Shown here piece after piece: positions 54,145 through 54,763 of a stretch of 64,000 bases of DNA. Within the stretch, counting starts at the first letter, position 1. Each line of letters begins with the position of its first letter. The DNA lies in NCBI RefSeq assembly GCF_024700885.2, contig NZ_CP117016.1. The stretch is one strand, 5' to 3'. The position numbers and the translations under genes were made by a program. The notes under the pieces were generated by a model, which did no database searches, was not told the origin of the DNA, and was given only the letters and a program-made list of their open reading frames with translations. Source of the stretch: Escherichia coli (lineage in GTDB: Bacteria; Pseudomonadota; Gammaproteobacteria; Enterobacterales; Enterobacteriaceae).

Positions 54145-54483
54145 ATGAGAAAAAAGCTGGCTTTTCTTGATACCAGTCTTGACGATTTACGCGCATTTCC
54201 AGAATCGTCTCGACAGGAAATTGGCTATCAACTCGACAGGATCCAACAAGGGTTAAACCCATACGACTGGAAACCTTTTTCAACTATCGGCCCTGGTCTG
54301 CGAGAGATTCGTACTCGCGATGCTGATGGGATCTATCGCGTCATGTATATCGCAAAATTTGAAGAAGCGGTTTACGTATTGCATTGTTTTCAAAAGAAAA
54401 CACAGACTACCAGTCAATCGGATGTTGATTTAGCCAAACGACGCTATAAAGAACTTGTTCAGGAGCGGAAAAATGAAAATTGA
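54145..54483 (+). CDS. Putative type II toxin, RelE/ParE superfamily (Gp49/HigB-like)
   Basis: 112-aa ORF ending ...GIYRVMYIAKFEEAVYVLHCFQKKTQTTSQSDVDLAKRRYKEL, which matches the conserved C-terminal FxKKTQKTP-type motif of Gp49-like toxins; sits directly upstream of and overlapping an HTH gene. Confidence 0.65.
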   Translation: MRKKLAFLDTSLDDLRAFPESSRQEIGYQLDRIQQGLNPYDWKPFSTIGPGLREIRTRDADGIYRVMYIAKFEEAVYVLHCFQKKTQTTSQSDVDLAKRRYKELVQERKNEN

Positions 54484-54763
54484 AACCTTTGATAGTGTGT
54501 GGGATGCGGTGAGTGACACCCCTGAACAAGCGGAAAATATGCGGATCCGTGCCGAACTTGTAACGATCATTAATAACTGGATTGAACAACAAGGGTTTAG
54601 CCAGGCTCAAGCAGCGTCTGCTTTAGGGGTCACTCAACCTCGCATATCTGAACTTGCCAGAGGTAAGATCCAGATCTTTAGTATCGATAAATTGATCACC
54701 ATGATGGCTCATGCAGGATTGCATATTCAACGTATTGAAATTCAATATCCACATGCTGCTTAG
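54473..54763 (+). CDS. Putative antitoxin, XRE-family helix-turn-helix protein (HigA-like)
   Basis: 96-aa ORF from MKIETFD; RBS-like aggag 5-12 nt upstream; HTH segment QAQAASALGVTQPRISELARGK; 11-bp overlap with the toxin ORF. Confidence 0.65.
   Translation: MKIETFDSVWDAVSDTPEQAENMRIRAELVTIINNWIEQQGFSQAQAASALGVTQPRISELARGKIQIFSIDKLITMMAHAGLHIQRIEIQYPHAA

Follow-up and report, generated by a model that had tools for sequence, protein, structure and literature searches.

The spacer between yegH and asmA in this Escherichia coli genome carries a two-gene cassette that is best explained as a Tad-Ata-type operon, a chromosomal type II toxin-antitoxin system in which a Gp49-family toxin is followed by an HTH_37/COG5606 XRE antitoxin. 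A probability of roughly 0.78 is given to this reading, which draws directly on the family assignments, the predicted folds, the two-gene architecture, a conserved palindrome and the distribution of the cassette among genomes. The window, that is, the whole stretch of DNA analyzed, comprises 64,000 nucleotides of contig NZ_CP117016.1. The locus has the following features.

52487-54070, plus strand: yegH (TerC family), the upstream flank
54077-54109, no strand assigned: hairpin with 16-bp arms just 3' of yegH (-20.6 kcal/mol, z -7.4)
54111-54128, no strand assigned: 18-bp palindrome TATACAAAATTTAGTATA, an inverted repeat whose right arm overlaps the -10 box
54125-54130, plus strand: -10 hexamer TATAAT (family consensus here TATAaT)
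54137-54145, plus strand: mini-ORF ATG GAG TAA, whose stop overlaps the toxin ATG (TAATG)
54139-54142, plus strand: Shine-Dalgarno-like GGAG, 2 nt from the toxin ATG and arranged likewise in L096, a deep Escherichia-like lineage
54145-54483, plus strand: toxin gene, 112 aa, Gp49/Tad family of the RelE/ParE superfamily
54461-54465, plus strand: antitoxin Shine-Dalgarno sequence AGGAG, 7 nt 5' of the ATG
54473-54763, plus strand: antitoxin gene, 96 aa, ATG start, XRE-type HTH (HTH_37 / COG5606-like)
54772-54807, no strand assigned: hairpin between the antitoxin gene and asmA (-24.8 kcal/mol on the minus strand, z -6.1)
54816-56669, minus strand: asmA, the convergent downstream flank

These coordinates match the first-pass annotation, which had described a spacer of about 745 bp with two overlapping ORFs on the same strand; by the sequence and the ORF list the overlap is 11 bp. 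The PGAP record, the ORF list and the allele comparison all place yegH upstream, and the last sets the left edge of the allele-specific spacer at the yegH stop codon. In the PGAP annotation the surroundings consist of the housekeeping genes yegH, asmA, dcd and udk, with no defence island and no mobile-element genes beside the cassette. In the 100% identical record NZ_CP117013, the toxin carries the PGAP name "type II toxin-antitoxin system RelE/ParE family toxin". The JGI names for the two proteins are "phage-related protein" and "predicted XRE-type DNA-binding protein", which presumably agree with those of COG4679 and COG5606. The pair had been thought possibly uncharacterised at this site, and literature searches by accession, flanking gene name, guessed O157 locus tag (guesses that may be wrong) and operator sequence indeed turned up no paper on the locus.

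The 112-residue protein is a Gp49-like member of the RelE/ParE superfamily, as had been proposed from its sequence. In Pfam, PF05973 (Gp49) covers residues 13-102 along model positions 1-90 of 90 (E 1.7e-29), and PHROG 2523 matches at E 2e-36. The AlphaFold (AF2) model, with a pLDDT of 92, has the layout β-α-α-β4-αC of a RelE/ParE fold and ends in a long C-terminal helix (residues 91-111), a feature typical of Gp49-like toxins (PMC9098466). Its nearest PDB fold is that of Mycobacterium tuberculosis HigB1 (7nbu/7awk; E 3e-4, TMq 0.68), followed by ParE2, RelE, Streptococcus pneumoniae HigB and Vibrio cholerae HigB2. The residues E54, R56, R65, Y68, H80, C81, F82, K84 and K85 are invariant in 42 homologs, and the 21 invariant and 17 near-invariant residues of the family are all present in the window toxin. 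R65, F82 and K84 line up with R73, F90 and K92 of S. pneumoniae HigB, the counterparts of HigB1 R77, F93 and K95, and mutating the HigB1 residues abolishes toxicity (PMC9098466). E54 and R56, matched without an alignment, may be the equivalents of HigB1 E66 and R68. The toxin is predicted to be a ribosome-dependent mRNA endonuclease, the activity under which the gp49 family is listed (PMC11980606). Membership of the Pfam Gp49 family is no guarantee of toxicity; M. tuberculosis HigB2 and HigB3, both placed in the family (PMC5906591, PMC11980606), are non-toxic (PMC9098466).

The 96-residue protein is an XRE-type HTH protein with its own ribosome-binding site, again in keeping with the earlier reading. 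It matches HTH_37 (PF13744) in Pfam at E 4.9e-22 and the PDB entry 2a6c by sequence at E 3e-14. The AF2 model (pLDDT 90.8) is a five-helix HTH with an XRE fold, and its top structural matches are 2o38 and 2a6c, followed by HipB and HigA. Across many phyla, 76 of 81 related loci have an antitoxin homolog immediately 3' of the toxin gene.

Judged by sequence, the cassette is of the Tad-Ata (COG4679-COG5606) type, a kind of type II toxin-antitoxin pair described in 2007-2009 and also known as the RelE-COG5606 family (PMC2701414). Tad-Ata was described from plasmid pAMI2 of Paracoccus aminophilus, with relatives on SXT and phage N15 (Dziewit et al. 2007, cited through PMC2701414 and PMC3606827). 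Likened by this published description, both systems place a Gp49/DUF891 toxin first and a small COG5606/HTH_37 XRE antitoxin second, and plasmids, integrative elements and prophages carry relatives of the cassette, too. Unlike the pairs on pAMI2, SXT and N15, the cassette is chromosomal, flanked by housekeeping genes and free of neighbouring mobile-element genes. The N15 toxin gp49 is 33% identical to the cassette toxin, and the N15 antitoxin gp48 gives no alignment with the cassette antitoxin.

Other toxin-antitoxin systems resemble the cassette in part. M. tuberculosis HigB1 (Rv1955), the TAC toxin, shares with the toxin the Gp49-like fold, the long C-terminal helix and the R77/F93/K95 equivalents (PMC9098466), at 18-20% identity in the structural alignment. 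The TAC system of HigB1 has three parts, including a SecB-like chaperone, whereas the cassette has no chaperone gene. In the HigBA pairs of S. pneumoniae (6af3, 6af4) and Acinetobacter baumannii, as in the cassette, a Gp49 toxin precedes an HTH-XRE antitoxin (PMC5906591). S. pneumoniae HigB is the sole PDB match of the toxin by sequence (E 0.019, or 0.003 with a profile), a low likeness limited to the C-terminal third; the antitoxin match is weak (E 0.24). Canonical HigBA, represented by Rts1 HigB, K-12 HigB/YgjN and V. cholerae HigB2, resembles the cassette in its reversed gene order and in combining a toxin of the RelE superfamily with an HTH antitoxin. The toxin, however, matches none of the canonical HigB Pfam families PF05015, PF09907 and PF06296, nor the ParE family PF05016, and scores far below the cut-off of TIGR02683 in NCBIfam (23 bits against 62.85), as does the antitoxin with the HigA model TIGR02607 (16.3 bits against 47.7). 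Membership of canonical HigB/HigA or ParE is therefore rejected. Of the proposed HigBA-type module, the gene order and the HTH antitoxin hold good and membership by canonical HigB/HigA profiles does not. The toxin-first order with overlapping genes fits the Gp49-type family, of which it is typical (PMC5906591, PMC11980606).

The control region contains the perfect TATAAT noted earlier. A consensus promoter scan called no plus-strand promoter for the cassette, because no -35 hexamer (at least 4/6 matches) lies 16-18 nt upstream of it. The -10 box is overlapped by the 18-bp palindrome, which has the consensus TATACAAAATTTTGTATA and is probably the operator of the HTH_37 antitoxin. Just 5' of the toxin gene, YATAC-N8-GTATA was found in 59 of 80 related loci with at most one mismatch. 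With at most two mismatches it is present in 73 of the 76 loci that have an antitoxin homolog and in one of the four that do not; its ATA/TAT positions are invariant in all 73. Elsewhere in 452 kb there are almost no such sites. The pair on M. abscessus prophages has a symmetric variant, TATATC-N6-GATATA.

The spacing of 2 nt between GGAG and the toxin ATG is suboptimal and would make for weak translation of the toxin. Comparison of upstream regions showed that the ATG of the mini-ORF coincides with the leaderless start-codon position in non-enteric relatives, and most relatives of the cassette look leaderless. The mini-ORF occurs in E. coli and has a counterpart in Cedecea, ATG GAG TGA. It was considered as a conserved coupling device and dropped, since in L096 the same ATG leads into another frame that lacks an early stop.

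From the family's behaviour and the conservation of sequence, we infer that the antitoxin binds both the toxin and the operator, and the Tad-Ata operon might work as follows. Transcription would start about 7 nt after TATAAT and give an mRNA leader of about 8 nt. On this message the toxin would be translated poorly from its closely spaced GGAG, and the antitoxin well from AGGAG at its 7-nt spacing, with overlapping start. An antitoxin dimer bound to the palindrome at 54111-54128, over the -10 box, would repress the operon, and the antitoxin would also bind and neutralize the toxin. Upon depletion of the antitoxin, free toxin would enter the ribosomal A site and cleave mRNA in the manner of M. 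tuberculosis HigB1, using R65, F82 and K84, the equivalents of HigB1 R77, F93 and K95, and translation and growth would stop.

The hairpins on either side may set the limits of the transcript. The one at 54077-54109 probably terminates transcription from yegH and keeps the cassette insulated; its plus-strand tail is weakly T-rich, and the terminator scan calls it on the minus strand only. The one at 54772-54807, with a T-rich tail on the minus strand, resembles a terminator for asmA and could terminate the toxin-antitoxin transcript as well. Its counterparts in L096 and L101 have the same GATGGCG/CGCCATC core. The cassette had been described as bracketed by the yegH and asmA hairpins of a conserved backbone. 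The hairpins are real, but they go with the cassette allele, are missing from K-12-type spacers and so are not part of such a backbone.

The cassette had been called strain-specific. It is present at the same locus in 792-910 of 5,426 complete E. coli genomes (~15-17%), O157:H7, O55:H7 and UM146 among them, so that description falls away. There is no strain-specific novelty in it: it is an ordinary toxin-antitoxin pair whose toxin is already labelled in public annotation. K-12 does not have the cassette, and the interval is, as expected, not universal in E. coli. The K-12 spacer is indeed free of annotated genes, though at 273 bp it is longer than the ~150 bp first given for it. Among the best 80 relatives there is no Escherichia or Salmonella species representative (the top one is from Pantoea, at 71%), which makes the cassette accessory at the species level. 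The toxin-antitoxin pair is likewise carried by plasmids (635 records, including 303 conjugative ones), by a conjugative element of Salmonella and by prophages of M. abscessus. Apparent plasmid-borne copies from E. coli were set aside; the three hits, at 96-97%, carry yegH, asmA, dcd and udk and are chromosomal segments filed as plasmids.

Alignment of six spacer alleles (67, 273, 292, 450, 745 and 723 bp) did not bear out the suggestion of a compact insertion into a conserved backbone. The difference between the cassette and K-12-type spacers begins with the first base past the yegH stop codon and runs as far as the stop codon of asmA (TAA in the window, TAG in K-12). No target duplication or terminal repeat was seen at the cassette junctions in these alleles. 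Simple insertion was rejected on this ground; the whole spacer is an alternative allele. Other spacer alleles (67-534 bp) consist of REP and repeat DNA, for which an Rfam scan gave sub-threshold matches only (naRNA4, TwoAYGGAY).

Hybrid alleles also exist, in which repeats overwrite parts of the cassette. About 118 genomes match the cassette only in part. In L007, the one of these that was inspected, repeat DNA replaces the promoter and toxin codons 1-57 and the antitoxin gene is intact, and of the cassette just the final 100 bp survive in the L008 allele. In L096, from Logan record SRR26188678, the cassette adjoins asmA and has diverged to a flank-like extent. The hybrid alleles and this outgroup lineage suggest that the cassette is old at yegH-asmA and is being overwritten by repeats, and they make an old allele under loss at least as likely as a gain. 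The cassette would then be a common and probably old spacer allele, lost or overwritten by REP sequences in most E. coli lineages. A fuller version of this history is doubtful: that the cassette is the ancestral occupant of the spacer in Escherichia, kept for longer than the age of the genus for a benefit such as abortive infection or stress-linked growth control; that a control region conserved across phyla, with its operator in the -10 box and the start codon at or close to the 5' end of the transcript, ties toxin output to leaderless or short-leader translation; and that most E. coli lost the cassette through mobile REP-associated repeats, leaving intermediates of loss that include orphan antitoxins.

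The frequency of decay also speaks for the leading alternative, in which the cassette is a remnant, either decaying or domesticated, whose toxin is inactive or weakly active in E. coli and which is kept by hitch-hiking or by a regulatory role of its HTH protein. In addition to the partial matches and the L007 and L008 alleles, the toxin of L006 is frameshifted and that of H61 is interrupted by IS1, and M. tuberculosis HigB2 and HigB3 provide the precedent of non-toxic Gp49 proteins (PMC9098466). The copy in the window, however, has both ORFs intact, the full set of invariant and near-invariant toxin residues, and an intact promoter, palindrome and pair of ribosome-binding sites. Moreover, toxin identity is 96-98% in hundreds of E. 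coli genomes and ~60% across proteobacterial classes, the latter pointing to purifying selection. A remnant is unlikely.

Still less probable is that the pair serves mainly in abortive infection by phage, with shut-off of host transcription leading to decay of the antitoxin and release of the RNase. A defence role for toxins of the RelE/ParE superfamily is discussed (PMC11980606), relatives are carried by prophages and conjugative elements, and the antitoxin weakly matches the candidate system PDC-M64C in PADLOC (E 7e-5). Against this, the best match of the toxin in PADLOC-DB v2 is not significant (NsnC, partial, E 0.0065) and the antitoxin matches only generic HTH components there, the neighbouring genes are housekeeping genes rather than a defence island, and the literature search gave no experimental report. 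Membership of a known defence system was rejected on the lack of a significant PADLOC match for the toxin, which also leaves the first-pass idea of a phage-defence module without support. It is very improbable that the toxin is a ParE-like gyrase poison and no mRNA endonuclease. ParE2 (5cw7, E ~1e-3) does appear among the fold matches and the PGAP name is the generic "RelE/ParE family", but PF05016 is unmatched in the Pfam search, the top fold is that of HigB1, a ribosome-bound RNase, the basic and aromatic RNase residues of HigB1 and S. pneumoniae HigB are conserved (PMC9098466), and the gp49 family is classed among mRNA-degrading, ribosome-dependent toxins (PMC11980606).

On its own, the Tad-Ata cassette is minor, one more chromosomal toxin-antitoxin pair of a well-described family with a toxin already annotated. 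What the sequence comparison appears to add is modest: a conserved palindrome at the -10 box and the leaderless look of most relatives. The cassette is nevertheless found in lineages of clinical importance (O157:H7, O55:H7 and strains such as UM146). The 18-bp palindrome offers a precise candidate operator for the HTH_37 subfamily, whose nearest structures, 2a6c and 2o38, have no assigned function. The yegH-asmA spacer, in turn, is a clear multi-allelic example of a toxin-antitoxin cassette replaced by REP-type repeats, with orphan-antitoxin intermediates included.

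The yegH-asmA spacer of the window holds a predicted toxin gene followed by a predicted antitoxin gene, with an 11-bp overlap between the two ORFs. Both the ORF calls and the raw sequence agree with the coordinates of the first-pass annotation, the TATAAT it had placed upstream of the toxin gene is present, and two strong computed hairpins bracket the pair as it had proposed.

54077-54109: left hairpin, -20.6 kcal/mol, z = -7.4
54111-54128: palindrome, TATACAAAATTTAGTATA
54125-54130, + strand: predicted -10 box, TATAAT
54139-54142, + strand: GGAG, 2 nt ahead of the toxin ATG
54145-54483, + strand: toxin gene, 112 aa
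54461-54465, + strand: AGGAG, 7 nt ahead of the antitoxin ATG
54473-54763, + strand: antitoxin gene, 96 aa, ATG at 54473
54772-54807: right hairpin, -24.8 kcal/mol on the asmA strand, z = -6.1

A consensus promoter scan called no + strand promoter for the pair because an acceptable -35 hexamer is absent at 16-18 nt. E. coli MLI114 (NZ_CP117013) matches the window at 100% identity; its annotation gives the flanks as yegH and asmA-dcd, the toxin as "type II toxin-antitoxin system RelE/ParE family toxin" (WP_001227698.1) and the antitoxin as "helix-turn-helix domain-containing protein" (WP_000687871.1). The mechanical yegH ORF begins at TTG 52421 (549 aa) and the RefSeq gene at 52487 (527 aa); this is a start-codon difference only, confined to 52421-52486.

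The toxin covers the whole Pfam Gp49 model (PF05973, E 1.7e-29) and matches PHROG 2523 (E 2e-36); NCBIfam gave only a sub-threshold RelE/ParE match. The AlphaFold2 model, built on 42 homologs (pLDDT 92, pTM 0.83), predicts a strand at the N-terminus, then two helices and a four-stranded sheet, and at the C-terminus a long helix of the kind typical for Gp49-like toxins (PMC9098466). In a Foldseek search of the PDB with this model, Mycobacterium tuberculosis HigB1 ranked first (7nbu, 7awk; E ~3e-4, TMq 0.68), followed by ParE2, RelE, S. pneumoniae HigB, V. cholerae HigB2 and YafQ. The HMMER alignment pairs toxin residues R65, F82 and K84 with R73, F90 and K92 of S. pneumoniae HigB. These correspond to R77, F93 and K95 of HigB1, the loss of which abolishes toxicity (PMC9098466). 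R65, F82 and K84 are invariant in a 42-sequence alignment, as are E54, R56, Y68, H80, C81 and K85.

The antitoxin belongs to the HTH_37 family (PF13744, E 4.9e-22) and matches the uncharacterised regulator 2a6c (E 3e-14). Its predicted structure is a five-helix XRE fold (pLDDT 90.8), closest to 2o38 and 2a6c, then to HipB, M. tuberculosis HigA2 and S. pneumoniae HigA. The profile searches and predicted toxin fold thus bear out a RelE-type toxin with an XRE-type HTH partner, as the first-pass annotation had it.

Toxin relatives number 3,642 at E <= 1e-5. Identity is 79% in Salmonella and ~70% in Pantoea, Erwinia, Photorhabdus and Yersinia, and ~60% even in alpha-, beta- and gammaproteobacteria and Acidobacteria. 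An M. abscessus prophage pair shows 56% identity in the toxin and 48% in the antitoxin. In 76 of the 81 loci fetched, the toxin is followed directly by an antitoxin homolog (40-72% identity). Toxin relatives occur on 635 plasmid records, 303 of them conjugative. The Salmonella copy is part of a conjugative element that holds, ~1.5 kb away, another, divergent Gp49-HTH pair (L009:5913-6504 in the locus fetched); this second pair adjoins genes for TraW-like, TraX-like and exclusion proteins. The N15 gp49 protein is only 33% identical to the window toxin, and its antitoxin gp48 gave no alignment with the window antitoxin.

Comparison of the upstream regions showed an 18-bp palindrome, consensus YATACAAAATTTTGTATA, immediately 5' of the toxin gene. 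It is found in 59 of 80 loci at <=1 mismatch to TATAC-N8-GTATA and in 73 of the 76 HTH_37-antitoxin loci at <=2 mismatches, with its ATA and TAT invariant in 73/73. Only ~61 sites occur across the entire 452 kb examined, and therefore essentially all are at toxin-gene promoters. Positions 15-20 of the palindrome alignment read TATAaT, which places the -10 box within the right arm. Four related toxin loci (L041, L076, L077, L089) lack an HTH_37 antitoxin homolog and have a different upstream palindrome, GTATA-N6-TATAC; the putative operator therefore co-varies with the antitoxin type. A symmetric variant, TATATC-N6-GATATA, occurs with the mycobacterial prophage pair. We infer from these sequence comparisons that the palindrome is a candidate operator of the antitoxin.

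The first in-frame start codon is 7-10 nt past the palindrome in 59/71 loci, or 5-8 nt past the -10 box, which makes most relatives look leaderless. The E. coli and related enteric loci depart from this pattern, with the toxin ATG 16 nt past the palindrome; their predicted toxin mRNA would have a leader of ~8 nt, in which a GGAG stands just 2 nt ahead of the ATG. "Near-leaderless", as the first-pass annotation put it, is reasonable wording for this predicted transcript. The window also has ATG GAG TAA at 54137-54147, exactly where the leaderless start codon of non-enteric relatives is found, with a stop that shares bases with the toxin ATG (TAATG). In Cedecea, ATG GAG TGA occupies the equivalent position. 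Conservation of this mini-ORF is doubtful because the equivalent ATG in contig L096 opens a longer out-of-frame reading.

The 738-bp cassette is carried by 910 of 5,426 complete E. coli genomes, 792 with >=80% of its length, and is thus not strain-specific as first proposed. Carriers include O157:H7, O55:H7 and UM146, and every copy inspected is at yegH-asmA. Three apparent E. coli plasmid copies were rejected as chromosomal segments, with yegH, asmA, dcd and udk on them. Non-cassette E. coli spacers are 67, 273, 292 or 450 bp long; K-12, as had been held, has no cassette and carries the 273-bp spacer. The alternative and hybrid alleles are located as follows in the comparison loci.

L002:872-1144, L003:572-1021, L004:572-863, L005:572-638: E. 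coli alternative spacers
L007:1003-1450: hybrid allele, "orphan antitoxin"
L008:1201-1301: hybrid allele, last 100 bp of the cassette left

Between the base following the yegH stop and the asmA stop codon, the alternative spacers have nothing in common with the cassette allele, and the allele comparison found no target duplication at the cassette. The alleles thus differ over the whole spacer, which does not support the insertion into a conserved backbone originally envisaged. The alternative spacers consist of REP sequences and a repeat of ~180-350 nt found at a median of 3 and a maximum of 8 places per E. coli genome. With the L097-L100 loci from other Escherichia species included, the spacer is a multi-allelic hotspot of 67, 273, 292, 450 and 534 bp alleles plus the 745-bp cassette allele. 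In E. whittamii and another Escherichia lineage the repeat is inverted between two REPs. The repeat at L007:713-856 (~L003 670-815) gave a sub-threshold match to Rfam TwoAYGGAY (31.5 bits, gathering score 43, E 0.056) and includes the hairpin CCCACATGGATGTGGG with an AYGGAY loop; it may be either a structured RNA or a MITE. The REP parts gave sub-threshold naRNA4 matches in Rfam.

In the L007 hybrid, a 450-type repeat stands in place of the hairpin, promoter and toxin codons 1-57, and the antitoxin is intact. A partial cassette match only was found in ~118 genomes, several of those listed having the L007 matched span. In L008 everything from the yegH 3' end through antitoxin codon 82 has given way to a repeat segment. 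Other E. coli toxin genes are frameshifted or IS1-interrupted. Such alleles can be derived only from cassette-bearing chromosomes.

In L096 (L096:1-2443, Logan SRR26188678), a contig without the left flank, the cassette adjoins asmA. Compared with the window at the DNA level, its toxin gene is 82.6% identical, its antitoxin gene 83.2% and its asmA 77.5%. L096 AsmA is 82-84% identical to that of all Escherichia species compared, whereas E. coli AsmA is 87-88% identical to that of E. fergusonii or E. whittamii. A second contig, L101, has an AsmA 96% identical to that of L096, the same hairpin, and REP DNA at the expected antitoxin end. These AsmA identities suggest an undescribed deep Escherichia-like taxon. 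The E. fergusonii spacer (L097:4355-4805) and the E. coli 450-bp allele share 97.1% identity; the flanks are 96.4% identical at the yegH 3' end but only 88.6% at the asmA 3' end, which points to a recent import between species with one end near the spacer. The hybrid alleles, L096/L101 and the E. fergusonii contrast together favor an old cassette allele undergoing loss or overwriting, at a probability of roughly 55-60%, over a cassette that was gained and then spread through flank recombination.

By analogy with characterised members (PMC9098466, PMC5906591, PMC11980606, PMC2701414), an antitoxin dimer would repress the operon at the palindrome, and antitoxin bound to the toxin would neutralise it. 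Free toxin would cleave mRNA on the ribosome, and the unequal ribosome-binding sites may keep the antitoxin in excess. It is unlikely that the module is inactive or decaying, although the Gp49 Pfam family includes non-toxic relatives, M. tuberculosis HigB2 and HigB3, and cassette decay is common in the E. coli population. A dedicated phage-defence module, as once suggested, is quite improbable, a PADLOC search giving no support. The gp49 family is listed as toxin-first, mRNA-degrading and ribosome-dependent (PMC11980606); a ParE-like gyrase poison is scarcely credible.

Systems of this type are well known, and a toxin-antitoxin annotation is already attached to the toxin. In an E. coli survey, Gp49 was one of the toxin domains represented by the most groups, the yegH-asmA locus being undescribed there (PMC10790755). 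Literature searches found no paper on a yegH-asmA toxin-antitoxin locus or on the palindrome, in keeping with the earlier view that the pair at this locus may be uncharacterised. The palindrome from the upstream comparison is the one new point, and follow-up is likely to pay off only for the operator prediction and the allele-turnover series.
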